Of a stretch of 64,000 bases of DNA, positions 30,068 through 57,860 are shown piece by piece. The notes beneath the pieces are model-generated. The model worked only from the letters and a program-made list of their open reading frames with translations. It ran no database searches and was not told where the DNA came from. Both the position numbers and the translations under genes were made by a program. The DNA comes from Atribacterota bacterium (GTDB lineage Bacteria; Atribacterota; Phoenicimicrobiia; Phoenicimicrobiales; Stramentimicrobiaceae). Within the stretch, counting starts at the first letter, position 1. Each line of letters opens with the position of its first letter. The stretch covers positions 24,105-88,104 of the forward strand of contig JAQVGY010000001.1 in the NCBI GenBank assembly GCA_028696495.1, read 5' to 3'.

Positions 30068-32554
30068 TCATTCGCTGTCACTATTATCTTGATATTTTTC
30101 TTTTTCCTTATGACTATCTTTTAGTTCTTTTTTTTCAAAAATAATCTTATCTTTCTTAGCTCCAATAAATAGATGTTCCCCATCCTTCAACTCACCGGAT
30201 AATATTTTTTCTGAAATTGGATTCTCTACCAATCTTTCAATTGTTCTTCTTAAAGGCCTGGCACCAAAGTTAGGATCATATCCTTCTTTTGCTAAAATAT
30301 CTTTGGCACTATTACTAACTGAAAAAGTTATTTTTTGTTCTGCTAATAATTCTTTCACTTCATTCAGTAATAGATCTGCAATCTTTCTAATTTCAATTTT
30401 GGTAAGACTTTTGAAGACAATTATTTCATCAATTCGATTAAGAAATTCCGGTCGAAATGTCTTATTTAATTCACTCATAACCCTGTCTTTTATATCTTTG
30501 TAGGACATTTGTTCAGGTTCGTTTGAACTTCTAAAACCTAAAGAAGTTCCTTTTTTAATTAGGGTAGCCCCCACATTAGAAGTCATAATTATGACAGTGT
30601 TTTTAAAATCTACCACCCTGCCCTGAGCATCTGTCAATCTCCCATCCTCAAATATCTGTAACAGTATATTGAAGACATCAGGATGAGCCTTTTCAATCTC
30701 ATCCAGCAAAACTACTGAATAGGGTCGTCTTCTCACCTTCTCAGTTAGCTGTCCCCCTTCTTCATAGCCCACATAACCAGGAGGGGCTCCAACCAATCTG
30801 GAAACTGCAAATTTTTCCATATATTCAGACATATCTAAACTGATCATAGCATTTTCATCCCCAAACAAAAACTCAGCTAAACTTCTTGCCAGTTCAGTTT
30901 TACCTACTCCTGTGGGACCTAAAAAAACAAATGAACCAATCGGTCTCCTGGGATCTTTCATACCAGCCCTGGCTCTGCGTACAGCTCTGGATATTGCCGT
31001 AATAGCATCATCCTGACCAATAATCCGCTTATGTAGCTCATCTTCCATTCTAATAAGCTTTTTAGCTTCTTCTTCTTTCAGAGAATAAACGGGGACTCCG
31101 CTCCAGCTGGAAACAACTTCTGCTACATCTTCCACAGTGACTTCTATTTTATCTTTGGTTTTTCCAATTTCCCATTCTTTCTTAATTTCATTATATTTTT
31201 CTTCAAATTTTCTTTCCTTATCTCTTAATTTAGCCGCCTTTTCAAATTGTTGTAACCTCACTGCAGCCTCTTTTTCTTTTCTAACCTTTAGTAATTCTTC
31301 TTCAATGTCTTTTACATCAGGCGGAAAAACAGTATTTTTTAGTTTTACCCGGGAAGATGCTTCATCTATTACATCGATAGCCTTATCAGGTAAAAAACGG
31401 CCTGAAACATACCTTGCTGCTAACTTTACTGCTGATATTAAAGACTGATCAGTAATAGTCAATTTATGATGGGCTTCATATTTATCTCTCAATCCTTTAA
31501 GTATTTCAATAGCCTCCTCAACGGTAGGCTCAGGTACATTAATGGGTTGAAAACGCCTCTCTAATGCTTTATCTTTTTCAATATATTTTCTATATTCATC
31601 AGTTGTAGTTGCACCAATAGTCTGAATCTCACCGCGAGCCAGAGCAGGTTTTAATATATTGGATGCGTCGATAGCCCCTTCAGCGGCACCGGCACCAACA
31701 AGAGTATGAAATTCATCTATAAATAGGATTACATCATTGGAATTTTCGACTTCTTTGACTATCTTTTTGAGACGTTTTTCGAACTCTCCTCTATATTTTG
31801 TACCGGCAACTATTAAAGCAAGGTCTAAAGAGATTATTCTCTTATTTTTTAAGATTTCAGGAACATCATTATTGGCTATTTTTTGAGCCAACCCCTCAAC
31901 AATAGCTGTTTTCCCAACACCGGCCTCTCCAATTAAACAGGGATTATTCTTCTTCCTTCTGCTCAATATCTGTATTACTCTTTGAATCTCATTATTTCTG
32001 CCCACCACAGGATCTAATTTTTCTTCTCTGGCTAATTCGGTTAAATCTCTCCCGAATTCATCTAATGTTGGAACTTTGCTCTCTTTTCTAACAACACTTC
32101 CAGGTTCATCGGGATTACCACTTTCCATTAATAACTTTAATATACGGGTATAAATATTCTCTAAATCTAATCCCATCTGTGTTAAGATACGTGTTGCAAC
32201 ACCACTACCTTCTTTGATTAGACCCAAAAGAATATGTTCTGTACCTATATAATTCTGTCCTAATCTACTTGCTTCCTGTGAGGCTAATTCTAATACTTTT
32301 TTAGCTCTTGGTGTAAAAGTAATCTCACTAACTTCCTGATATTTTCCTCTTCCCACTATCTTTTCAATCTCTTCAATAACTCTTTCCGGGTCAACACCTG
32401 AATCACGCAGGACTCTGCTGGCAATTCCATCATTTTCCTTAACCAGGCCAACTAAAATGTGCTCGGTTCCTATATAGTTATGATTAAGATTCACCGCTTC
32501 TTCTTGTGCCATCATAATCACTTTTCTTACTTTTTCGGTATATCTTTTGAACAT
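30068..32554 (-). CDS. clpC: ATP-dependent Clp protease ATP-binding subunit ClpC
   Basis: ORF-track frame to 32569. Preferred start [20 protein letters not shown]. Two N-terminal Clp repeats, UVR-like motif, AAA1 [11 protein letters not shown]2 [11 protein letters not shown]. Confidence 0.92.
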
Positions 32555-32642
32555 ATCTTTCCTTCCCAATATTTTTTAAAATTATTGTAATAAATGTTTT
32601 CTCTATATAAATAGGTCTAAGGTCTATACCAACCCCTATTTT

Positions 32643-33719
32643 CTAATCTAATAATTCTTGAATTATTTTGGCTCTAGCAATATCCCGCTCATTTTCATTC
32701 ATTTTTTTATTTTTCAATAATTGAATGTATGCTGATTGTATTATTAACATGAGCCGATTAATAGTATCATACCCAATCTTAGTAAATATGCCCAATTCTA
32801 TGCCAAATCTGATCTTGGACAATAAATCGATTGCCTCTAATGTGGATATGATTCTTGCATTCGTAAGTATACCATATGCACGTAAAATTTGGTCCTCTAT
32901 TCTCTGCCTGGAGTGCAACATCAATTCCTCTCTTGCCCTTTCTTCTTCATCAATTAATAGCCTGCTAATCATTTCTAATTTCTTAATAATCTCATTCTCT
33001 TTTAACCCCATGGTTACCTGGTTGGAGACCTGAAACAAGTTACCCTGAAAATCTGTACCTTCTCCGTAGAACCCTCTCACTGCATATCCCGTCTTAGATA
33101 TTGATGACAACAAATCATTCAATTTATTTTTATAAAACAGTCCTGGCAAATGCAACATGACAGAAGCTCTTAGCCCTGTACCGGCATTGGTAGGACAGCA
33201 GGTTAAAAACCCTTCGTTTTCATTAAAAGAGTATTCAATTTCTTTCATAATCTGGTCATCATAGCAATCGATTATCTCCCAGACTTTTTCTAATTGAAAA
33301 CCAGGGAGCAGACATTGTATTCTAAAATGGTCCTCTTCATTGACCATTATACTGATAATTTCATCTGGTTTGTATATAAAAGCTCTATAAGGGTAACCCA
33401 ATTGGGCTAAAGATAGACTGATGAGACGCTTTTCAACTAAAAATTGTATATCTAAATCAGTTAAATCATCTATTTTGATCAGTTTAAAATCCTGAAAAAA
33501 GCTATTATTTTTTATCAGGTTTTCACTTTTTTTCAGTACCTGTTCTAACTGATTTGGATTTGCCTTGAAAGGGAAGGGAATATCTTGAATATTTCTGGCT
33601 AATCGCAATCTGGTACTAACTACTATATGATTCAAAGGGCCATCACCTTTAGTCCACCCGGAGGTTGTATCCCTTAATTCGCGTATAAGCAAAGCCTCTT
33701 TATTACTCATTATTTCCAT
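32643..33719 (-). CDS. mcsB: protein-arginine kinase McsB
   Basis: 358 aa; guanidino-kinase fold motifs CPTNAGTGLRASVMLHLPGL, RLARNIQDIPFPF. Overlaps mcsA by 17 nt. Confidence 0.9.
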   Translation of the reverse strand: MEIMSNKEALLIRELRDTTSGWTKGDGPLNHIVVSTRLRLARNIQDIPFPFKANPNQLEQVLKKSENLIKNNSFFQDFKLIKIDDLTDLDIQFLVEKRLISLSLAQLGYPYRAFIYKPDEIISIMVNEEDHFRIQCLLPGFQLEKVWEIIDCYDDQIMKEIEYSFNENEGFLTCCPTNAGTGLRASVMLHLPGLFYKNKLNDLLSSISKTGYAVRGFYGEGTDFQGNLFQVSNQVTMGLKENEIIKKLEMISRLLIDEEERAREELMLHSRQRIEDQILRAYGILTNARIISTLEAIDLLSKIRFGIELGIFTKIGYDTINRLMLIIQSAYIQLLKNKKMNENERDIARAKIIQELLD

Positions 33720-37822: not shown

Positions 37823-38989
37823 TCAGTATACCATATTTTTTCCAACTATTATAGTCATATCTACTCCATTGTTGGGCTGTAATTTTCGAATTATCTCTAT
37901 ATCATCTAAAAATTGTTTAATGTATTCTTCTAACCTTTCATCTTTTGAGTAAAGAATAAGAACTGTCTTTTGATAATCAAAATTATCGGCATTATCTATA
38001 TTAACAACATTAAAACCTAAATCTTCCATTCTACTGGCAACTCTATGAGCAATCCCCGGAATTCGGTTACCATTTAACACTTCAATATTCATTCCTCTGT
38101 ACTTATTTTCAATTATATTTTGTACATATTTTTTTATTTCCTGGTCATCAACTATCAGGTAACTCACTCCGTTAATGTATTGGGGCTCACCTTTTATTGT
38201 TTCTACCCATATTTTTGTTCTATCTACATCTTTCATTAATTTTGCCAGAGAGATCAATTCATTTGATTTTATATTTGTTTTAATATAATCGGTTAAGCTA
38301 TCGATAATAATTGGAATTTTGGTTATACTTTCAAAATTTAATAATTTTTCAATCACTGCATTAATTAATTTCTGCTGTCTCTGAATTCTACCTAAATCAC
38401 CCATTGCATCGGCTCGGAATCTAACATATTCAAGCGCCTTTTCACCATCTAATTTCTGCTGTCCAGAACACAAATTAATCTTTAAAGAGCCAGCCCGGTC
38501 GATATAATACATGTTTTTCTCAACATAGATATCTACCCCATCCAGAGCATCAATAATATACCTGAACCCTTCAAAATCAACTACTCCATAATAATTAATT
38601 GATATTCCTACAAAATCTTCAACACTCTTTTCTAACAGATCAATCCCACCATATGCAAAAGCATGATTAATCTTATCCATTCCCCTGCCTGGTATCATGA
38701 CTCTAATATCTCTAGGAATTGAAAACAATACTGTATCTTTAGTCTTAGGATCTACACTCAGAATTAAAATTGTATCAGCCCTTCCCTGAGTTTCAGTACT
38801 GTCTGTTCCAACAGCTAATATATTCAATCTTTCGTGTGCTAAGATATCAGAATGAAATGGAAATATGTTAAAAAAATACAGGAACACAAAACATATAATT
38901 AATAAAAAAATTAAAAATAAAGCCTGAATTGTTCTCTTTTTTCCCTTTTTCCTTGCTGCAATATGTCTATCTGATCTTGCCAATTTCAA
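37823..38989 (-). CDS. LytR-CpsA-Psr (LCP) family cell-wall glycopolymer transferase with C-terminal LytR_C domain
   Basis: 388 aa; N-terminal TM, LCP core NILAVGTDSTETQGRADTILILSVDPKTKDTVLFSIPRDIRVMIPG, C-terminal LytR_C-like domain. Confidence 0.8.
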   Translation of the reverse strand: MKLARSDRHIAARKKGKKRTIQALFLIFLLIICFVFLYFFNIFPFHSDILAHERLNILAVGTDSTETQGRADTILILSVDPKTKDTVLFSIPRDIRVMIPGRGMDKINHAFAYGGIDLLEKSVEDFVGISINYYGVVDFEGFRYIIDALDGVDIYVEKNMYYIDRAGSLKINLCSGQQKLDGEKALEYVRFRADAMGDLGRIQRQQKLINAVIEKLLNFESITKIPIIIDSLTDYIKTNIKSNELISLAKLMKDVDRTKIWVETIKGEPQYINGVSYLIVDDQEIKKYVQNIIENKYRGMNIEVLNGNRIPGIAHRVASRMEDLGFNVVNIDNADNFDYQKTVLILYSKDERLEEYIKQFLDDIEIIRKLQPNNGVDMTIIVGKNMVY

Positions 38990-40305: not shown

Positions 40306-41265
40306 CTATAAATAGGGCTTTTCTTCACCCACAACCTCTTTATTAATAACTCTAAAGACCTTATCCTCTTTTTCATATCTCCATAGCTCAATCAATTCTT
40401 CAGAATCTGTTTTAATTATTTCAATAGAATCTGGATAACCTAAATCATCATATCCAGCTTTTTGTAAGGCCTGTATATATGGTTTCGCCTTTACTTCTTG
40501 TAATTGATTTAATAAATTTTCTTTTCTTTCGTTCAGACCAAGAGATTGAAATATTTGCAACAATTCTTGATAGGAATACCAATATTCTTGAGGTCTTAGG
40601 AATAAGGAAGGATTGCTTTTTTCTTCAAGAGCAATGGCTTTTTCAAAACTGCTGATTGCCAATGATGTATATTGCCAGCTAATTTTCTTCGATAATGCCT
40701 GATATATTTCCCCCATCCAATAATTAGCACCAATTGCATCTTTATCCGACTCACTTACTCTTCTAAAATACGGAATTGCAGATAACAGTGTATAGCTGCC
40801 AACATTGCTCTCATTTAAAAATGTATCCTGTTGAACTCCTAATATCCTTAACCCTTCTAAATAGTAATCCCCAGAAGCCCCACCCGTTACTCTCGAGGTA
40901 TCACGGAAACTTTCATTTAAATATCGAAAAGCATACGAATTTCTTGGGTTTATCCTTAATACTTCTATCCATTGTGTAATAGCTTTATCATGTTGTCCGG
41001 TTTGACGATATACTTTACCTAACCAGTAATGAGCGTTTTCAAAATTCGAATCTAACTCAATGGCTTTTTTATAATTCTCTTCAGCTTGCTGATATTTTTC
41101 TTGTGAAAAATATTGATATCCGTTCTGATAGTAGGACTGTGCATCTTGAGAAAAACATATACCAGAATAACTCAAAAATATAATAATAACTCCTATCCCT
41201 ATTATTCTCTTTGTATTCTTATTTTTTCTTATAGTAGCTATATTTTCATCAACCACTCTTTTCAC
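40306..41265 (-). CDS. TPR-repeat protein with N-terminal signal/anchor
   Basis: 319 aa; hydrophobic N-terminus IIGIGVIIIFLSYSGICFS, then TPR units (QSYYQNGYQYFSQEKYQQAEENYKKAIELD, AHYWLGKVYRQTGQHDKAI). Confidence 0.7.
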   Translation of the reverse strand: MKRVVDENIATIRKNKNTKRIIGIGVIIIFLSYSGICFSQDAQSYYQNGYQYFSQEKYQQAEENYKKAIELDSNFENAHYWLGKVYRQTGQHDKAITQWIEVLRINPRNSYAFRYLNESFRDTSRVTGGASGDYYLEGLRILGVQQDTFLNESNVGSYTLLSAIPYFRRVSESDKDAIGANYWMGEIYQALSKKISWQYTSLAISSFEKAIALEEKSNPSLFLRPQEYWYSYQELLQIFQSLGLNERKENLLNQLQEVKAKPYIQALQKAGYDDLGYPDSIEIIKTDSEELIELWRYEKEDKVFRVINKEVVGEEKPYL

Positions 41266-51547: not shown

Positions 51548-53032
51548 TTAATAATTAATTTCCGTATCTGGATGTACCACCTGTATCCAAACATTTCCAG
51601 GCTGTATTGCCAGTCTATTCCCATCCTTATTAAAAAAATAGGTTTTAGATTCTAAAGCTTCTTTAGACCAGGTAATCTCTTCTGATTTACCATTATAGAT
51701 GATTAGTCCGGCTCCTTTGCCAATAAAATCGATTGCCAGTCTACCTTCAGTATCCAATATCTTTTTATCACTGGCTTGAATAATAATATTTTTTACCTGT
51801 AGTTGCCTTCCTGTTTCAGCATCAATATGGGGATTTCCATTCAAAAAACGAACATATCTTTGAATTTCAGGCATATATTGATAGCTAACCTCATAGTTGA
51901 CATTATATTTTATATTTATCTTATTAATTTCCTTTCCAGTAAGAACCTCATTGGAATCAATTTCAAATTGATAATCATCTTTATTAACCATTTCAATATA
52001 GCCCAACCTCCTCGCCTCATCTCTTAATCTTTCAGTTGAGGTATAAAGGTTATGCGGTGGCTTGCGATCTGATGTTCTCCAGAAAGGTTGAAAGTGAACT
52101 AATTCGTTTATATCATCTATTCTTTCTTCTTTAATAAAGATTGCTGCATCCGGGCTTTCTCCGGCATGCACATAGATGGCATTGTGTTCTAATGTTTTGG
52201 TAATAAAATATGGTCTGGCACTGCGAACGGGGCCAACCTTGTCTGCCTCTTGTGTGGCAAAAATAGCCAAAAAGCGGGTGATTCCACCTTCTGCCAGTAC
52301 CTCGTATACAACATTTGCTTTTTCCAATCCACTTTGTGGTCGAGAATCTCGGGCATTGTCTATCATTATAGCCAGAGGCCTTTTGCCAAATGGTGACTCT
52401 TTTTCCGCCTGCCTTGGTAGTGTACTCAGCTCACCAGGGGTTACAACTGTACCATAAGTGGATTCGGTGCGCTCTCTTCCTTCCATCCCTAACCTTGCTT
52501 GAATTTCATATTCCCCTTTTTCTAATACTTCCCCCTCAATTTCCCTTCTACTGGCAATACTGGGACTTAATTCTCTGGTTGCAACCTGTACATCGCTTCG
52601 TATTGACACCTCTTCTTTAACCGGTGCCATATCTACTGTAGCTGGAATATCAATTTCCGGCATTTTTACCTCAACCCTGGGGCCGCTTTCCAGCTGTACC
52701 TCTTCTTTTTCTACCTTTGGCTGAGTCTCAATTTCCTGTGTTTTTGCTGGCTCAGGCAAGGCAGGTTCCACCCTTGGTCTTACACTTACCTCTGCTATCG
52801 GTTCTTCTCTGACAATTTCAGGTCTAACAGTAGTTGGTTTTTGAACAGAAGGCAGCTCAACGAGAGTAACCATAATTAGTTCTTCAATTTCAGGGATATT
52901 TATAAAATCAAAAGAGATTAAATTATTAAAAAATAGAATAAATATTATATTTAAAATTAGGGAAATTAAAAATGAACGACCTAAAAAACTTTTTGAACGA
53001 ATTTTTCTTCTTTTTGCTCTATATCCTGCCAT
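51548..53032 (-). CDS. TolA/TonB-like stalk protein: TM anchor + Pro/Glu/Val-rich spacer + C-terminal DUF3048 (YerB-like) domain
   Basis: 494 aa; basic N-terminus, one TM (FLISLILNIIFILFF), about 110-aa P/E/V/K-rich spacer, then PLAIMIDNARDSRPQSGLEKANVVYEVLAEGGITRFLAIF. It is 40 bp downstream of exbD. Confidence 0.6.
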   Translation of the reverse strand: MAGYRAKRRKIRSKSFLGRSFLISLILNIIFILFFNNLISFDFINIPEIEELIMVTLVELPSVQKPTTVRPEIVREEPIAEVSVRPRVEPALPEPAKTQEIETQPKVEKEEVQLESGPRVEVKMPEIDIPATVDMAPVKEEVSIRSDVQVATRELSPSIASRREIEGEVLEKGEYEIQARLGMEGRERTESTYGTVVTPGELSTLPRQAEKESPFGKRPLAIMIDNARDSRPQSGLEKANVVYEVLAEGGITRFLAIFATQEADKVGPVRSARPYFITKTLEHNAIYVHAGESPDAAIFIKEERIDDINELVHFQPFWRTSDRKPPHNLYTSTERLRDEARRLGYIEMVNKDDYQFEIDSNEVLTGKEINKINIKYNVNYEVSYQYMPEIQRYVRFLNGNPHIDAETGRQLQVKNIIIQASDKKILDTEGRLAIDFIGKGAGLIIYNGKSEEITWSKEALESKTYFFNKDGNRLAIQPGNVWIQVVHPDTEINY

Positions 53033-53072
53033 TATTTTTCTTACTCACTTTTATTTAGTAATCTTTACTTCT

Positions 53073-53486
53073 TTAAGGGCTCTCATCTCTCGGCTTAGTG
53101 GCTATGGCAATCCTCTCTATCCCGCTTTTTTTGATAAGATCCATAACTCTAACTACTTTACCATGGGTAACATTTTGATCGGCTTCTAAAACAACTAAAG
53201 GATTAGGATTATCCTTAGTCTCATCTCTCAGCTTTTCAGTTAAATAATTTGGATCAACCAGGTGATTATTGAGATAGAGCACATTATTTTCAGTTATAGT
53301 TACTACCACATTCCTCTTTTCACTTACAGCAGCAAAATCTCCACTGGGTAAATCAACTTTTACACCACTTTCCACATTTATAAAGGTAGTAGTCAGCATA
53401 AAAAAAATAAGCAACTGAAATACTACATCGATTAATGGAGTTAAGTCGAATTTAAGAGTTTTACTATTGGGCTGATAAAATTTCAT
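53073..53486 (-). CDS. exbD: biopolymer transport protein ExbD/TolR
   Basis: 137 aa; TPLIDVVFQLLIFFMLTT single TM, periplasmic domain. Confidence 0.85.
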   Translation of the reverse strand: MKFYQPNSKTLKFDLTPLIDVVFQLLIFFMLTTTFINVESGVKVDLPSGDFAAVSEKRNVVVTITENNVLYLNNHLVDPNYLTEKLRDETKDNPNPLVVLEADQNVTHGKVVRVMDLIKKSGIERIAIATKPRDESP

Positions 53487-54117
53487 CTACTTTTATATCC
53501 TCCTCACTTATTCCTCTTGTAACCGATAAGAGTTCTAAAATCTCAGTACTGGTAGCTTCCATTTCTTTTATCTGTCTTTCTACTCTATTTACCAGATAAT
53601 TATAGGCAACAATGGTAGGAATCGCCACAGAAAGACCAAAGGCAGTAGTCAACAAAGCCTCTGATATTGCTCCCGCCAGGGCTTCTGGGTTTCCCACACC
53701 AATTGCCGATATGACCTGGAATCCTTTTATCATACCGAAAACTGTTCCTAACAAACCCAGTAATGGAGCAATATTTCCAACAGTAGCCAGTATCGGCAAA
53801 TTTTTCTCTAAAACTGCTACTTCCTGGTGAGCAGTATCTTCAATTGCTTCTCTAATTTCTTCCCGAGAGCTTCCATATTTTAATAATGCAGCTAAAATTA
53901 TCTGCGAGATGGGAGAATAGTTTTTGCGACAGGCAGTAATTGCAAAATTAATATTTCCTTTTCTAATCAAATCGCTGATACGATTGCCAAATTTTCTGGT
54001 AGAAGTTTTAATACTCTTTAAAAAGAACATTCTTTCAAAAAAAATAGCAATGGCCAGCAAGGAACAGAAGAAAATGGGATACATTAAAAAACCGCCTTTG
54101 TAAAATAAATCAAACAT
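53464..54117 (-). CDS. exbB: MotA/TolQ/ExbB proton-channel protein
   Basis: 217 aa; 3 TM; LATVGNIAPLLGLLGTVFGMIKGF. Overlaps exbD by 23 nt. Confidence 0.85.
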   Translation of the reverse strand: MFDLFYKGGFLMYPIFFCSLLAIAIFFERMFFLKSIKTSTRKFGNRISDLIRKGNINFAITACRKNYSPISQIILAALLKYGSSREEIREAIEDTAHQEVAVLEKNLPILATVGNIAPLLGLLGTVFGMIKGFQVISAIGVGNPEALAGAISEALLTTAFGLSVAIPTIVAYNYLVNRVERQIKEMEATSTEILELLSVTRGISEEDIKVDEILSAQ

Positions 54118-54239
54118 TAATTAGTTGCCTCCTCAAATGTTATAGGATATTTTAATCTTTTGAATACATCATTGATTTACAATTTTTGAATAGTATAATG
54201 AATCTTTATTCTAAAGTTTAAATAGCTTTTATTTTAAAT

Positions 54240-57200
54240 CTATCGTTCTAATAGTCTTCTAACACTATCAGCATAAGTGGTCTCCGGGCATTTTTGTAAA
54301 ATCATCTCATATTTTTCTGTTGCCTGTTCCTGATAACCTAATTCTTCTTCACAAATTGCCGTAATGTACAAAATATCACATACCAATGTGCCAGAGGGAT
54401 ACCCACTTAAATATCTATCTCCAACCTGTAAAGCTTTCTCATATTCTCCTTTTTTAAAATAGCTCAGACTTAATCCATATAAAGCTCCGGGTAAATATTG
54501 GCTGTTGGGAGCATGAGCAATCAATTTTTCAAAATTTAAAATACTATCAATCCATTTTTCTTCTTCCAAATTAACTTGGGCTAAGATATAAAGCGCCTCT
54601 TCAACAAAACTGCTTTTAGCAAAAGATTGAATGAAATGCTGCAATTTTACTCTCGCCTCATCATTGTCTTTGGCTAAAAAATATATCTTTCCAATTAAAA
54701 AATTACTTTCTTCCACAAATTGGCTTTCCGGATAATCCTTAAGAAGCTTATCAAACATATCTATAGCCATATTATAATCACCAAGGTTTAGATAACTCCA
54801 ACATACACTATATTGTACGTGATCTGCTAAAGAATGGTAATGAAAATTCTTTAAAAACTCTTGATAATGTTTAATTGCCTCAGAGTATTTTTCCTGTTTG
54901 TAGCAGGTTTCCCCCAACATATACAATGCTCTTATAGCAATTTCATCTCCGTCAACATGGTTAATGCTATAAAAATAGTCTTCTGCTTGAGCATAATCAC
55001 CTAAACGATAGAAGCTCAATCCTTGCCAGTAATTAATTTCCTGTCTCATTTTATCCGTGATGGTCATGTCTTCTATTTCTTGAAAAATATTAATTGCTTC
55101 CTGAAATTCGCCCTTCTCATATTTTGATTTTGCCAGAACAAAATACCCCTCTATAGCCAGTGGGTCTTCCGGATATCTATTAGAAATTTCTTCATAAAGC
55201 GTAATGAGTTCTTCTTCATTATTTATTTTGTTTGCTGCATCTATCTTAAGCTCCAAAGCTTCTTTGCTATCAAAATCTTTTAATACTATTACCACATCCT
55301 GATAGCGATCTAACCTGTAATAACTTCTTGCTAATTCCAGGGATGTTATTTTAGATAATTCTCTATCAAGAGACTGATTTAGCACTTTTTCATAATAAGA
55401 TATGGCTTCCTTATCTTCTCCTTTTTTAGAATATGCTAAACCCAAATCGAACAATATTCTGGCCAGCATATTGTTATCATCAACTTTTTCAACCAAAGCA
55501 CTATTAATATCAATTACCTTATCATATTCTTTTTGCTCTAAGAAAACTCTTGCCAGCAGGTAGAGTGATTCATATTTAACCAGACTATCTTTTTGTACTA
55601 ATTCTTCTAAATTTGTCCTTGCTTCCGGATAATTACCTTCTTTAAATAGTACGAAACTATAGTAATATACGGTTTCATTTAATAATTCAAAATCAGGTTT
55701 ATTATTTTTGATATCGGTAAAGTAGATCTTGGCTTTGTCATAGATTTCTTCCCAGAAATAGGATTGTCCTAAAATAAATTTAATCTCATATTTATCAAAT
55801 TGTAAAGGATCTGCTGTAATTAAATTTTCATAAAGTTTAATAGTCTGGGCATATTTCTTCTGTTTAAAATATACCATCCCTAATTTATACATCCCCTCTT
55901 GATGAAGAGTGCTTCTGGGATAATTCTTTACTAACAATTCCAGTACAATTTCAGCGTTGGAATAATCCCCCAATAAGTAGGCACACCAGCCATTTCCTAA
56001 TAAAGCATTTTCATAATATTCACTATCTATATAATTATTTACAATATATTGATAGTGCTGATTTGCTTCAGCATAATTCCTTAACTGGTATAGTGTTTCA
56101 GCTATAAGAAATCTGGCTTCTAAAAAGTCTGGACTATCTTCCAGAACATCCCTTAATTTCTCTAATGCAGCTTCATAGTCACCTAAAGAATAGAAATTAT
56201 AAGCCAGCTGATAATATTCCTTTTCCCAATCAATATCAAAGTAGCTGTCCCCACCAATTTTTTCTCTCTCTACCAGGTATTCATCCATCTGATTTAGATG
56301 GTAGTAGGTACGCATTAGATAAATCCGTGTCTTTTCATAATTTGGATTTTTCTGAGCAGACTCCTTAAATTTAAGCAATGCTGCCTCATAATCACCTGAA
56401 ACATAGTTTTGATATCCTTGATTGAATATCCAGACTACTTCTCTGCCAAACTCCTTTTCTTCGTTTGCTTTATTTAGATAGATTCTGGCATTGGTATTAA
56501 AAGGGTCTAACCGAACGGCTTCTTCCAAATATTTAATTGAACTATCAAGATCACCCACCTGATAATAGCTTAACCCTAAAAAATAATAAGCTTCTTTGAA
56601 ATCTTTGCTCAGACCTATCGCTTGTGTCAATAATTTAATAGAATCAAAATATTTTTTAGAGCTGTAGGCGTTGTAACCGGTAACATACAATTCATAAGCT
56701 TCTTTGCCATAAATTTCAGCCTGTTGATACTGTCGAAAAACCCATTCAACTTCTTTATTATCGGGTTTGAGCTTTTCAATTTGCTCAGCTTGTTCCAGGG
56801 CTTTAGAAACCTGACCGGTATCATAATATGCTTGCATTAAGAGTATTCTGGCTTTAACATTATCTGGCTGATATAAAATTGAATCCTCTAAATTGTCTAT
56901 TGTAGATGCAATATCATCCTGAGAATACTTTGAATAGGCAAGGCGATAGAGAGCATCTGCTAATCTGTGATAACTTACTTTGAAATCACTATTGCTTCTG
57001 GCAGTTTCTAAATATTTTTCAAGACTGGCGATTTCCCGAAAGGTCCATTTAGTTCTTTCATATATTTGGGATAATAGATAATAAGCTTCGGCAAAAGATG
57101 GGTCTTCTTCTACAGCTTTTTCAGCAAAGTCTATTGCTTTGGTCCAGAGGGGTTTGCTCGGATAGTCAGCTCCCTGGTATTCTGTGATAGCCTGATCTTT

Positions 57201-57860
57201 AAATTCAATACTTTGATAATAATTTTTTAAAGCTGTCAAAGATGTAGAAATATTTTTCTTCAGGTTGTAAGCTAATTCTTCATCGATATATACACCAGCT
57301 TCTTCTAAAATAGTCTTAGCGATATCTTCTTTAAAATAAAGTAAATCTTCCGCCATTACCGTCATCTCACGAAATTCAAAAAACTGTTCCAGTTGAGCTT
57401 GATACATAATTAGATTGAATCTCAGGAGTTCTTTCTGTTCCAAAGAAAAATATCCGGTAAATATTAGGTCGACTTTCAGCAGCTCATTCAAGGAGCGGAA
57501 AAGACTGACATCTTTTCCCTCTGCTAAAGCCCCATAAACTTCAATGTTTGTTAATTTTTCAATCTCTTCTGCTGACATATAGTTAATCTTATCTGAATGG
57601 GAGAAAGCATGATTCAACATATCCGGAAATCCCTTTTCCAACCACTGCCACTTATCTTCTCCGGTTAGATTACGGAAATAATAAACTGCAAATTTTTGAT
57701 TATCTGTTGCAGCTGAAATAGAATTAAAAACAGCAGAAAACAGAATTAACATTAAGGCGAGATGTAGCAGGCAGGATTTTGACAGCCTTCTAAAAAGATC
57801 TTTGCGATAATATAAAGAGTTTCTATTTATTTTTATAAAAACCATATTTGGCTTCACCAA
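54240..57860 (-). CDS. 1206-aa exported protein: TolB-N-terminal-like domain followed by more than 20 TPR repeats
   Basis: Signal/anchor LLHLALMLILFSAVFNSISA; segment KFAVYYFRNLTGEDKWQWLEKGFPDMLNHAF fits the hAVLPFxNLSGD TolB_N-like pattern. The rest is TPR units (e.g. AEAYYLLSQIYERT, AYYFLGLSYYQVGD). Confidence 0.7.
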   Translation of the reverse strand: MVKPNMVFIKINRNSLYYRKDLFRRLSKSCLLHLALMLILFSAVFNSISAATDNQKFAVYYFRNLTGEDKWQWLEKGFPDMLNHAFSHSDKINYMSAEEIEKLTNIEVYGALAEGKDVSLFRSLNELLKVDLIFTGYFSLEQKELLRFNLIMYQAQLEQFFEFREMTVMAEDLLYFKEDIAKTILEEAGVYIDEELAYNLKKNISTSLTALKNYYQSIEFKDQAITEYQGADYPSKPLWTKAIDFAEKAVEEDPSFAEAYYLLSQIYERTKWTFREIASLEKYLETARSNSDFKVSYHRLADALYRLAYSKYSQDDIASTIDNLEDSILYQPDNVKARILLMQAYYDTGQVSKALEQAEQIEKLKPDNKEVEWVFRQYQQAEIYGKEAYELYVTGYNAYSSKKYFDSIKLLTQAIGLSKDFKEAYYFLGLSYYQVGDLDSSIKYLEEAVRLDPFNTNARIYLNKANEEKEFGREVVWIFNQGYQNYVSGDYEAALLKFKESAQKNPNYEKTRIYLMRTYYHLNQMDEYLVEREKIGGDSYFDIDWEKEYYQLAYNFYSLGDYEAALEKLRDVLEDSPDFLEARFLIAETLYQLRNYAEANQHYQYIVNNYIDSEYYENALLGNGWCAYLLGDYSNAEIVLELLVKNYPRSTLHQEGMYKLGMVYFKQKKYAQTIKLYENLITADPLQFDKYEIKFILGQSYFWEEIYDKAKIYFTDIKNNKPDFELLNETVYYYSFVLFKEGNYPEARTNLEELVQKDSLVKYESLYLLARVFLEQKEYDKVIDINSALVEKVDDNNMLARILFDLGLAYSKKGEDKEAISYYEKVLNQSLDRELSKITSLELARSYYRLDRYQDVVIVLKDFDSKEALELKIDAANKINNEEELITLYEEISNRYPEDPLAIEGYFVLAKSKYEKGEFQEAINIFQEIEDMTITDKMRQEINYWQGLSFYRLGDYAQAEDYFYSINHVDGDEIAIRALYMLGETCYKQEKYSEAIKHYQEFLKNFHYHSLADHVQYSVCWSYLNLGDYNMAIDMFDKLLKDYPESQFVEESNFLIGKIYFLAKDNDEARVKLQHFIQSFAKSSFVEEALYILAQVNLEEEKWIDSILNFEKLIAHAPNSQYLPGALYGLSLSYFKKGEYEKALQVGDRYLSGYPSGTLVCDILYITAICEEELGYQEQATEKYEMILQKCPETTYADSVRRLLER

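Follow-up and report, generated by a model that had tools for sequence, protein, structure and literature searches.

A candidate Ton/Tol-type envelope machine of Atribacterota with a TonB-like stalk that ends in a YerB (DUF3048) domain

The exbBD cluster and its giant TPR protein

Four open reading frames on the minus strand of the window (the whole 64,000-nucleotide stretch of Atribacterota DNA that was analysed) encode, in their direction of reading, a 1206-aa TPR protein, ExbB, ExbD and a 494-aa protein referred to here as the stalk. An earlier note, made from the sequence alone, had described four tightly linked, co-directional genes, and all four were found as given. The exbB and exbD genes overlap by 23 nt, a gap of 40 nt separates exbD from the DUF3048 (stalk) gene, and 122 nt lie between the TPR gene and exbB. 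The features are as follows.

54240..57860, minus strand: giant TPR protein, 1206 aa from a TTG start, matched by about 40 TPR-type families
57141..57740, minus strand: N-domain of the TPR protein, which lies outside the repeats (residues 41-240) and has no Pfam match in the window copy
53464..54117, minus strand: ExbB/TolQ-family proton-channel subunit, 217 aa (PF01618, E 4e-36, 124 bits)
53073..53486, minus strand: ExbD/TolR-family subunit, 137 aa (PF02472, E 3e-32, 112 bits)
51548..53032, minus strand: stalk of 494 aa, TonB-like and joined to a YerB/DUF3048 domain (PF11258 and PF17479)
52910..53032, minus strand: start of the stalk, a basic cytoplasmic stretch (residues 1-19) and a transmembrane helix (20-41) with Ser24-x3-Asn28-x6-Phe35
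52850..52882, minus strand: conserved strand-like segment with alternating hydrophobic residues, a candidate 'motor box' for ExbD contact, residues 51-61 (ELIMVTLVELP), in which V55, E59 and P61 are invariant
52553..52849, minus strand: acidic, variable Pro/Glu/Val-rich spacer, residues 62-160, of low conservation and part of the GC-rich island
52388..52552, minus strand: conserved pre-domain segment of about 55 aa, residues 161-215 (SRxEIxGE...ESTYG...GEIxxLP..EKESPF)
51551..52402, minus strand: YerB-fold domain, consisting of DUF3048 N (residues 211-345) and DUF3048_C (372-483)

The two motor genes had been called canonical, and they do encode ordinary family members with the key residues in place. 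ExbB, whose ATG is preceded by a GAGGAGG ribosome-binding site, is assigned to the MotA_ExbB family by its PF01618 match together with the pore Thr and Pro, found in GTVFG and LLTTAFG..AIP; these two residues and the Ser of TM1 are conserved. ExbD is assigned to the ExbD/TolR family by PF02472 and the transmembrane Asp in TPLIDVVF, which is kept in all loci. For both subunits the Tol models outscore the Ton models: ExbB scores 118 bits against TIGR02796 tolQ (cut-off 221) and 76 bits against TIGR02797 exbB (cut-off 206), and ExbD scores 79 bits against tolR versus 62 bits against the ExbD model, both under cut-off. Because the TolQ and ExbB equivalog cut-offs are missed, the motor ExbB is given no subfamily.

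The giant TPR protein is organized as a signal peptide, a conserved N-domain of about 190 aa and TPR repeats that run to the C-terminus, with matches to TPR_2, TPR_16, TPR_6 and YfiO. The open reading frame of 1206 codons exists as described in the earlier note, although an ATG at 57845, the start called by JGI, which gives 1201 aa, is the more likely beginning. The signal peptide is of the Sec type, covers approximately residues 29-52 and ends in ..SISA|AT. The N-domain, which closes with an invariant AIxEYxGxDxPSKxLW, had been read as a TolB-N-like module; TolB_N (PF04052) is unmatched at E<=10 in the window protein and 13 orthologues, and hhalign against the N-domain of E. coli TolB returns a probability of 0.1%, so that this part of the earlier interpretation falls. 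The one signal obtained is a weak match to CsgG (PF03783) in 3 orthologues out of 14, reaching E 7e-5 and 22.7 bits at best, and on such profile matches the N-domain may be called CsgG-like at most weakly. The likeness of the repeats to CpoB/YbgF, by comparison, is borne out by a TIGR02795 match of 203 bits, a sum over eight repeat stretches. The protein is not CpoB proper, with a full-length NF008068 score of 73 bits against a cut-off of 383 and an N-domain different from that of CpoB.

All genes in the annotated rest of the window are housekeeping genes. TonB_C, a TolB propeller, Pal and a TonB-dependent receptor are absent from the annotated parts of the window, in agreement with the earlier note on the last three, and a check for a nearby canonical TonB or TolA found none in the parts searched (in both cases, open reading frames below approximately 23 kb were listed only). 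TolA, TolB and Pal/OmpA-like domains are likewise missing from the cluster, the annotated window genes and the annotated flanks of four related lineages. Membership in Tol-Pal was rejected on the lack of TolA domain III, tolB and pal at the locus. An anti-phage MotAB-like system such as Zorya was also considered and rejected, as none of the four proteins matches a PADLOC defence model at E<=0.01.

A stalk with a YerB-fold C-terminus and a TonB-like N-terminus

The earlier note had assigned the C-terminus of the stalk to DUF3048 rather than to TonB-C or TolA-III, and Pfam and fold agree. PF11258 matches residues 211-345 (E 6.5e-48) and PF17479 residues 372-483 (E 1.3e-29), both above gathering score, and the polar residues invariant in the family (E244, E248, R253, R270, S271, R273, R395 and W455) are all present; the stalk thus ends in an intact YerB fold and belongs to the DUF3048/YerB family. 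The fold returned no informative structural neighbours. A Pfam scan of the stalk at E<=1 reports only DUF3048, DUF3048_C and a chance match to YtkA, with no match to TonB_C (PF03544) or TolA. The protein is independently annotated as 'outer membrane biosynthesis protein TonB' in JGI/IMG; its name at NCBI is 'DUF3048 domain-containing protein'.

Between the membrane and the YerB domain lies the spacer, which the earlier note had put at about 110 aa. The spacer is real, but its variable part is about 100 aa long and is followed by the conserved segment of about 55 aa, in which S161, R162, G167, E190, T192, G194, L205, P206 and K211-P214 are invariant. Residues 62-160 contain 17% Glu, 15% Val and 13% Pro, carry a net charge of -7 and correspond to the 'proline-rich periplasm-spanning domain II' that is a trait of the TonB family; a full-length AF2 model, itself of low confidence, gives them no secondary structure. 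The GC-rich island noted at the spacer is also real (0.43-0.48 across approximately 52050-52800, against about 0.30-0.35 in the surroundings), but it extends over the first part of the DUF3048 domain as well.

The N-terminus, together with the conservation of the cluster across the phylum, makes the case for an energy-transducing stalk, the architecture proposed in the earlier note, stronger than could be seen from the sequence alone. The first 19 residues include 8 K/R and are followed by a single hydrophobic helix (20-41), in which 20 orthologues keep S24, N28 and F35 without exception. Across 45 species loci, and down to 37% identity, Ser24 is invariant and Asn28 is exchanged only for His, a change seen in two lineages; the window protein shares its Asn with most lineages, and L005, L049 and P0131 have His. 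Relative to the SHLS motif of TonB (Ser-x3-His-x6-Leu-x3-Ser), Phe occupies position +11 and the final Ser falls out of register. The H20N variant of E. coli TonB is reportedly functional. The His, called essential in TonB and TolA, is replaced by Asn in the window protein; within SHLS it is Ser-His that is conserved, Leu-Ser being less so in Ton, and in cryo-EM structures the TM1 Ser of ExbB contacts Ser-His of TonB/TolA (PMC12215075). The window ExbB lacks the Trp that in E. coli packs against that His. Past the helix, IMVTLV of the candidate motor box lies as far from the Ser as ISVTMV does in E. coli TonB, a stretch spanned by chain C of PDB 8P9R, a 23-residue TonB peptide.

Profile comparisons point in the same direction at scores that all lie far under the family thresholds, including the curated TonB score. 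The NCBIfam TonB model NF008084 matches the whole stalk with E 0.0015 and 18.5 bits (cut-off 315); among 76-aa N-terminal segments, a TonB model matches 3 of 17 (best E 5.4e-4) and tolA_full also 3 of 17; and hhalign against residues 1-86 of E. coli TonB pairs Ser with Ser and Asn with His (E 0.0033). This signal may be partly compositional, and no chain of TonB or TolA came up when the N-terminal module was searched as a profile against the PDB.

Conservation of the cluster and its interpretation

Atribacterota is a diderm phylum for which OmpM tethers have been reported, and the arrangement of the cluster is conserved throughout the loci examined. exbD lies directly upstream of the stalk gene in all 40 informative loci, that is, those among the 45 species loci with enough upstream DNA; exbB and exbD are both present in 35, and the other 5 are cut off at a contig end. 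The spacing between exbD and the stalk gene is -4 to +6 nt in the OP9 lineage and reaches 514 nt in the JS1 lineage. The TPR gene, at 21-74% identity, is directly upstream of exbB in every lineage and always forms the left edge of the conserved block, beyond which the genes vary (obg, proA, an ABC ATPase). Downstream, xerD and a purine nucleoside phosphorylase (PNP) gene are also syntenic, and part of the conservation of the cluster may therefore reflect a general stability of gene order in the phylum; in the OP9 lineage the setting is one of housekeeping and cell-cycle genes, with xerD, mreB, murA and lgt. Among 35 Firmicutes DUF3048 loci, none has exbB or exbD within 8 kb.

The helix motif follows the same distribution. 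Of 133 other DUF3048 representatives that possess an N-terminal hydrophobic segment, 129 lack Ser-x3-Asn/His inside the helix, and the remaining 4 are Atribacterota-type proteins. A related fusion protein (P0131/P0296) has a Ser-x3-His helix and does not adjoin exbBD. The motif is thus tied to the exbBD-linked clade and one close fusion relative only. DUF3048 proteins with a transmembrane segment and a Pro-rich linker, which the earlier note had said would count against its reading if common away from exbBD, do exist, but none of them has the Ser-x3-His/Asn helix.

These observations bear on whether the stalk is simply a membrane-anchored YerB protein, extracytoplasmic and wall-associated as in Firmicutes, with an ordinary signal-anchor and a flexible linker, that lies beside exbBD through stable housekeeping gene order and not as a functional partner. 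With about 350 aa, most members of the DUF3048 family are simple lipoproteins or anchored proteins, long-linker or Pro-rich members without TonB-like features exist, synteny reaches downstream to xerD and PNP, P0296 stands apart from exbBD, and the TonB/TolA HMM matches are sub-threshold. A signal anchor, however, needs neither an invariant Ser-x3-Asn/His face nor an invariant strand-like segment, both of which are kept to 37% identity, and we regard the explanation as unlikely given that the TonB-like features are confined to the exbBD-linked clade and its one close fusion relative, that the exbD and stalk genes overlap or abut in the OP9 lineage, and that synteny on the upstream side always ends immediately ahead of the TPR gene.

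A true Ton import system, in which the stalk is the cell's TonB and DUF3048 replaces TonB_C in contacting TonB-dependent receptors or OmpM-type porins for uptake, seems more doubtful still. The stalk has no TonB_C domain, no TonB-dependent receptor occurs in the annotated window parts or the examined flanks, and the motor subunits score higher on TolQ/TolR than on ExbB/ExbD models; moreover, Firmicutes, most of which have a single membrane, carry this domain and its invariant residues in abundance, and the conserved job of the domain therefore cannot be the gating of outer-membrane receptors. Uptake would fit the TonB-like N-terminal module, a spacer that is Pro-rich rather than helical, the IMG annotation as TonB, and the reported wide occurrence of Ton systems among diderm Terrabacteria, with TonB earlier reported for Atribacteria (PMC12204202). 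It is also conceivable, if highly improbable, that ExbBD serves the TPR giant or an unlinked canonical TonB/TolA and that the DUF3048 protein is an operon passenger: the TPR gene is conserved as tightly as the stalk gene, TPR proteins go with several Ton/Tol systems (CpoB, for example) according to PMC12204202, and the vWA clusters of the same paper also include a TPR gene. Against this, the signal peptide of the TPR protein looks cleavable, which leaves the protein without a transmembrane helix to dock on ExbB, and the cluster contains no further TonB- or TolA-like open reading frame.

The reading we favour, and hold to be rather probable, is that the cluster encodes a phylum-wide Atribacterota envelope machine of TonB/TolA-type design, in which the stalk is the force transducer of ExbBD and YerB its effector. 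ExbB and ExbD would form a proton-driven motor in the inner membrane, and the helix of the stalk would dock outside ExbB through its Ser-x3-Asn/His face, and the strand-like segment that follows would contact ExbD at its periplasmic domain. The acidic Pro/Glu-rich spacer would then span the periplasm, coupling the energy of the motor to the YerB domain as the working end; that the domain keeps every family-invariant polar residue suggests that it is moved, pulled or positioned at the peptidoglycan/outer-membrane side. The secreted TPR protein of about 1200 aa may serve as a periplasmic scaffold or partner. The role of such a machine is probably Tol-like, in envelope maintenance or wall-to-outer-membrane coordination, rather than in TonB-box-dependent import.

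By means of Ton/Tol machines, two-membrane bacteria bring energy to an outer membrane that lacks a supply of its own, and to our knowledge no more than two kinds of working end were recognised before a vWA-headed class was put forward in 2025. The Atribacterota cluster looks like an undescribed variant, a TonB/TolA-type transducer with a YerB effector, and if this is true it would add a third class of C-terminal 'heads' for 5:2 motors, after TonB_C/TolA-III and vWA. Conservation of a third head across a phylum suggests a general role for the TonB-type stalk, as an adaptor to which different periplasmic effectors can be fitted. DUF3048/YerB is a large family with a solved structure, found among housekeeping genes, for which we know of no function, and the cluster would offer a first functional handle on it, as well as a concrete envelope-maintenance candidate for Atribacteria, whose cell architecture is unusual. 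A broader and rather improbable extension is that Terrabacteria had an ancient envelope machine, driven by protons, with YerB as its effector, the motor-coupled form in Atribacterota being a counterpart of Tol-Pal, and that the single-membrane Firmicutes and relatives kept the effector alone, as a lipoprotein, after loss of the outer membrane; if true, a family that counts more than 7,600 sequence clusters would thereby gain its first mechanism. Cultured Atribacterota strains and complete genomes now exist, which makes the proposed machine testable.

Comparison with known systems

Tol-Pal with CpoB resembles the cluster in its motor, whose subunits are matched best by TolQ/TolR models, in a clustered TPR protein with YbgF/CpoB-type repeats, and in a housekeeping/cell-cycle setting. 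The stalk cluster differs in having no TolA domain III, TolB or Pal, and the stalk spacer is Pro/Glu-rich where that of TolA is helical. CpoB, at about 260 aa, combines a coiled coil at its N-terminus with a single TPR domain at its C-terminus, and its gene follows pal; the window TPR protein is about 4.5 times larger, has another N-terminal domain and comes first in its cluster instead of last. Homologues of OmpM have been reported in Atribacteria (bioRxiv 10.1101/2021.05.31.446380), and parts of the literature report Pal to be absent from most diderm Terrabacteria, which together make a non-canonical Tol-type system plausible.

The cluster resembles the E. coli ExbB-ExbD-TonB complex (PDB 9DDO, 8P9R) in the basic N-terminus of the stalk, its single Ser-x3-(His/Asn) helix, the candidate strand-like segment about 31 residues past the Ser, about 100 aa of Pro-rich spacer and the adjacency of exbB and exbD. 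TonB ends, however, in a TonB_C domain of about 90 aa where the stalk has a 280-aa YerB fold, and has His where the stalk has Asn, the partner Trp being absent from the window ExbB; no TonB-dependent receptors are seen near the stalk cluster, and every TonB HMM score falls far short of its threshold.

YerB of Bacillus subtilis (PDB 2PSB), of the DUF3048 family, has its family-invariant residues without exception in the stalk, and the domain with these residues is abundant in Firmicutes loci (Paenibacillus, Clostridia); in Clostridia the gene lies within a ybeY-dgkA-cdd-era-recO cluster. YerB and most of its relatives are nevertheless lipoproteins or simply anchored proteins of one-membrane bacteria, with neither a TonB-like helix nor an exbBD neighbour.

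The closest precedent in cluster design is the vWA transducers described in 2025, in which a TPR-tolQ-tolR set is followed by a gene for a transmembrane helix, a Pro-rich linker and a vWA C-terminal domain (PMC12204202). The stalk is not a member of this class, its C-terminal domain being a YerB fold and not vWA, and DUF3048 is mentioned neither in that paper nor in the text of its supplements. The vWA systems also have a heterologous ExbD-like pair rather than one ExbD-like gene, and their hosts are Proteobacteria, the PVC group and Bacteroidetes rather than Atribacterota. The logic of the cluster is nonetheless common to both, as is the Ser-His-type motif of the helix.

The gene cluster and its motor subunits

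Four co-directional genes, proposed in the earlier note as a Tol/Ton-type motor with its partners, lie on the minus strand, and a six-frame ORF listing reproduces the proposed coordinates exactly:

54240-57860, minus strand: TPR protein, 1206 aa, matched by ~40 TPR-type Pfam families and by TIGR02795 (NCBIfam, YbgF-type TPR; 203 bits over eight repeat stretches)
53464-54117, minus strand: ExbB, 217 aa (PF01618, E 4e-36)
53073-53486, minus strand: ExbD, 137 aa (PF02472, E 3e-32)
51548-53032, minus strand: stalk protein, 494 aa (PF11258 at residues 211-345, E 6.5e-48; PF17479 at residues 372-483, E 1.3e-29)

The exbB and exbD genes overlap by 23 nt, 40 nt separate exbD from the stalk gene and 122 nt separate the TPR gene from exbB, which is preceded by a GAGGAGG ribosome-binding site. 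No terminator was found in any cluster spacer, promoter and terminator scans did not rise above shuffle expectation, and no Rfam match pointed to a regulatory RNA in or around the cluster. The GC-enriched island read from the sequence was borne out by a GC profile, at 0.43-0.48 over ~52050-52800 as against ~0.30-0.35 in the flanking DNA, and takes in the spacer of the stalk gene together with the beginning of its DUF3048 domain. A 93-aa plus-strand ORF (52176-52457), antisense inside this GC-rich part, was set aside as spurious; base composition most likely accounts for it.

The motor part of the earlier interpretation is right, in that the two subunits are ExbB/TolQ and ExbD/TolR family members with their key residues present. 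The transmembrane Asp of ExbD (TPLIDVVF) is found in every lineage compared, and ExbB retains the pore Thr and Pro (GTVFG; LLTTAFG..AIP) together with, in alignment with the E. coli position, the TM1 Ser that touches the Ser-His pair of TonB/TolA in E. coli cryo-EM structures (PMC12215075). The Trp that accompanies this Ser in E. coli is replaced by Ile, Val, Leu or Phe in Atribacterota ExbB. TolQ/TolR models outscore ExbB/ExbD models for both subunits, and because all of these equivalog scores fall under the curated cut-offs, the subunits are placed only in the ExbB/TolQ and ExbD/TolR families. A defence-system (Zorya-like) reading was excluded at the PADLOC level, where there were no matches.

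When one genome per species was scanned, the stalk protein was matched over its full length at 45 Atribacterota loci and over the domain only at 35 other loci, the latter nearly all from Firmicutes, with two unclassified MAGs. The exbD gene lies directly upstream in 40 of 40 Atribacterota loci with enough upstream DNA, and both exbB and exbD are present in 35 of these 40; the remaining five loci are cut at a contig end and are uninformative for exbBD linkage. Among the 35 non-Atribacterota loci, none has exbB or exbD within 8 kb. In the lineages compared, exbB without exception directly follows the TPR gene. The next gene upstream varies, being obg in JS1 and the window clade, proA in the L005 lineage and an ABC ATPase gene in Thermatribacter velox, so that the conserved block begins at the TPR gene. 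Conservation extends downstream as well, to xerD and a gene for a nucleoside phosphorylase.

Spacing within the block differs among lineages. In OP9, exbD reaches or overlaps the start of the stalk gene (-4 to +6 nt), and lgt, encoding prolipoprotein diacylglyceryl transferase and thus another envelope gene of the block, sits between the stalk gene and xerD and overlaps the stalk stop (L087:11452-12219 in Thermatribacter velox CP121689, with the same gap in loci L038-L047). The exbD-to-stalk spacer, 40 nt in the window clade, is 80-514 nt and repeat-rich in JS1, where exbD-stalk and TPR-exbB spacers of 230-514 nt (L026:7558-7986, L004:9743-10000, L019, L024, L032, L048) are taken up by short tandem repeats with units of 7-8 nt, such as ATAGTAT x4.7 and AATTGGTC x5.5.

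The annotated genes of the window are all housekeeping genes, including those for L21, L27 and EF-Tu, clpC-mcsB, cysS, pgk, isoprenoid genes, mreB, murA, obg and xerD. The reported absence of a TolB propeller, Pal and a TonB-dependent receptor stands for these annotated genes, which have no TonB_C domain either and lie above ~23 kb; below that point the ORF listing includes two long reading frames, of 1224 aa and 1706 aa. At 30068-33719 (minus strand) clpC is found together with a gene for an mcsB-like arginine kinase (ATP:guanido phosphotransferase), a Firmicutes-style protein quality-control pair, and a second, small TPR protein of 319 aa is encoded at 40306-41265 (minus strand), ~13 kb from the cluster. 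An LCP-family (LytR_cpsA_psr) protein with a LytR_C domain is encoded at 37823-38989 (minus strand). Mostly in Gram-positive bacteria, LCP-family enzymes join wall polymers to the peptidoglycan, and the window protein may be relevant to OmpM/SLH-type tethering in a two-membrane phylum.

A TonB-like N-terminus on the stalk protein

A protein of Atribacterota metagenome-assembled genomes matches the stalk protein at 100% identity. The stalk protein is named 'outer membrane biosynthesis protein TonB' by the independent JGI/IMG pipeline but a DUF3048 protein by NCBI. A Pfam scan found no TonB_C or TolA domain in it, and its parts are as follows:

Residues 1-19: basic
Residues 20-41: single helix
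Residues 42-61: contain a conserved segment
Residues 62-160: acidic spacer of variable sequence, with 17% Glu, 15% Val and 13% Pro and a net charge of -7
Residues 161-215: conserved pre-domain segment, followed by the DUF3048 domain

Residues S24, N28, F35, V55, E59 and P61 are invariant in 20 stalk orthologues of 53-88% identity. The helix carries Ser-x3-Asn throughout the 45 species-representative Atribacterota loci, down to 37% identity, with the exceptions of loci L005 and L049, where, as in the related DUF3048 protein P0131, Ser-x3-His takes its place. Judged from sequence, Ser-x3-Asn/His appears to be the Ser-His core of the TonB/TolA SHLS motif, which is the conserved, motor-contacting part of that motif according to cryo-EM (PMC12215075). 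When Ser24 is set on Ser16 of TonB, the stalk segment I53-M-V-T-L-V58 coincides exactly with TonB I45-S-V-T-M-V50 (E. coli sequence checked against PDB 9DDO), a stretch that lies within the peptide of PDB 8P9R chain C. That TonB stretch is taken here to be the 'motor box', which Williams-Jones et al. (PMC12204202) credit to Loll 2024 and Zinke 2024. In a control set of 133 DUF3048 cluster representatives having an N-terminal hydrophobic segment, Ser-x3-His/Asn falls inside the helix in four, all of the Atribacterota type. At the ExbB position of E. coli Trp38, L005, with its stalk His, has Phe, and the Asn lineages have Ile, Val or Leu; the two positions could be co-varying, in a comparison underlain by a single evolutionary event.

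Profile comparisons gave weak statistics, with the TonB model NF008084 matching the whole stalk protein at E 0.0015, and a TonB model and tolA_full each matching three of 17 N-terminal segments of 76 aa (best E for TonB 5.4e-4). Alignment of the stalk N-terminus with TonB 1-86 by hhalign (E 0.0033, probability 10%) pairs Ser with Ser and Asn with His. A PDB profile search with the N-terminal module returned chance matches only, and a full-length AF2 model built from 20 close orthologues has a pLDDT of 44, with low confidence over helix, candidate motor box and linker. The proposal of a stalk consisting of a helix, a spacer and a DUF3048 end is upheld, and the conserved Ser-x3-Asn/His, the TonB-spaced segment and the conservation of the cluster make the case stronger than it was from the single sequence.

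A related 700-aa fusion, P0131/P0296 (L088:10001-12103, GCA_964609495.1, an unclassified MAG; also L086), joins a Ser-x3-His helix, a ~400-aa spacer and DUF3048. No exbBD genes lie within 10 kb of it, and thus the fusion exists outside the conserved cluster; canonical tonB is likewise often unlinked to exbBD (PMC12204202). A homologue search with P0131 recovered only itself and one relative, probably because of its low-complexity linker.

The YerB domain and the TPR protein

The sole match of the stalk C-terminal domain in a PDB profile search is B. subtilis YerB (2PSB, E 7e-58), and a domain-only AF2 model from 125 diverse relatives reaches a pLDDT of 94.3. Nine residues (E244, E248, R253, R270, S271, R273, R395, W455 and G479) are invariant across these 125 sequences, the window protein included, and some twenty further polar positions are nearly so; the Atribacterota domain thus retains any binding or catalytic site of the DUF3048 family. 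No function of DUF3048 is published in the literature searched, where YerB appears among lipoproteins of unknown function. An exhaustive search found 7,632 DUF3048 proteins among 50%-identity representatives; most of the best 150 are ~350 aa long with a short anchor or lipobox. Other architectures are seen among the DUF3048 representatives P0121, P0158, P0189 and P0211: in a protein of 1022 aa a dockerin-like region precedes two DUF3048 units in tandem, and members of a ~650-aa family have a signal peptide, a helical N-domain that is conserved and a long linker of low complexity. In Clostridia (L074:3281-9790; L054, L058, L061, L084), an ordinary DUF3048 gene lies inside a conserved yqfF(7TM-HD)-ybeY-dgkA/PAP2-DUF3048-cdd-era-recO arrangement, directly downstream of a gene whose product is a fusion of a PAP2 phosphatase domain with a diacylglycerol kinase family protein (PF01219), a neighbourhood that gives only a faint hint of lipid-carrier or wall metabolism.

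For the TPR gene, the ATG at 57845 is the probable start codon, in agreement with the JGI call. The gene product has a signal peptide with a small-x-small cleavage motif common to the lineages compared, followed by a ~190-aa N-domain that ends in an invariant AIxEYxGxDxPSKxLW. The earlier note had seen in this region a TolB-N-like module of the kind that contacts TolA, and here it was mistaken: TolB_N matched none of 14 orthologues, hhalign against the E. coli TolB N-domain gave a probability of 0.1%, and no evidence supports a TolB module that would contact TolA. The window N-domain has no Pfam match at E<=10, and a PDB profile search with it returned chance matches only. Its sole signal is CsgG (PF03783), in three of the 14 orthologues, one of them just over the gathering score (22.7 vs 20.8 bits) in a match covering the first beta-alpha unit; hhalign against an E. 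coli CsgG sequence was negative or meaningless. CsgG and TolB-N are both described with an anticodon-binding-domain-like fold, and on that account a distant structural kinship of the TPR N-domain is possible.

Interpretation and comparison with known systems

The best-supported reading of the sequence evidence is that the stalk protein would be a TonB/TolA-type force transducer with a YerB domain as its head. Beyond the sequence anatomy, we infer the mechanistic steps, in which the adjacent ExbBD motor would drive the YerB-headed transducer and the secreted TPR protein would accompany it as a scaffold. That the protein is a simple anchored YerB protein, as most of its best-matching relatives appear to be, with its synteny coincidental, is unlikely beside the Ser-x3-Asn/His helix, the TonB-spaced segment and the exbD gene adjoining every informative Atribacterota locus. 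It is less probable still, indeed improbable, that the motor's partner is something other than the stalk protein; the annotated genes of the window offer no TonB_C protein.

A genuine Ton import system with an odd TonB, the reading that the JGI/IMG name would favour, is also quite improbable. Firmicutes that lack an outer membrane, for example Paenibacillus and Clostridia, have this DUF3048 domain too, its invariant residues unchanged, and an activity at the wall or a membrane-proximal envelope component is therefore more likely than one at TonB-box receptors. The literature searched on TonB and TonB-dependent receptors in Atribacteria gave nothing beyond one citation. OmpM homologues occur in Atribacteria according to a preprint (bioRxiv 10.1101/2021.05.31.446380), related abstracts describe Pal as absent from most diderm Terrabacteria, and in the envelope of Atribacter laminatus, which is unusual and multilayered, a space of ~7 nm separates the outer and middle layers (PMC7736352). 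For the YerB-headed transducer, the Firmicutes occurrence, the TolQ/TolR-leaning motor and the YbgF-type TPR repeats together tip the balance toward a Tol-like maintenance role.

A YerB-headed Ton/Tol-type system is not described in the literature searched, and DUF3048 is absent from PMC12204202 and its text supplements; the only trace of the system is the conflict between automatic annotations, one naming TonB and the other DUF3048. Such a transducer would come as a surprise to Ton/Tol specialists, and the stalk system offers a way into DUF3048, a large orphan family. Among published systems, the vWA-headed class described by Williams-Jones et al. 2025 (PMC12204202) comes nearest, and the cluster has in common with it the gene logic of TPR-tolQ-tolR-transducer.
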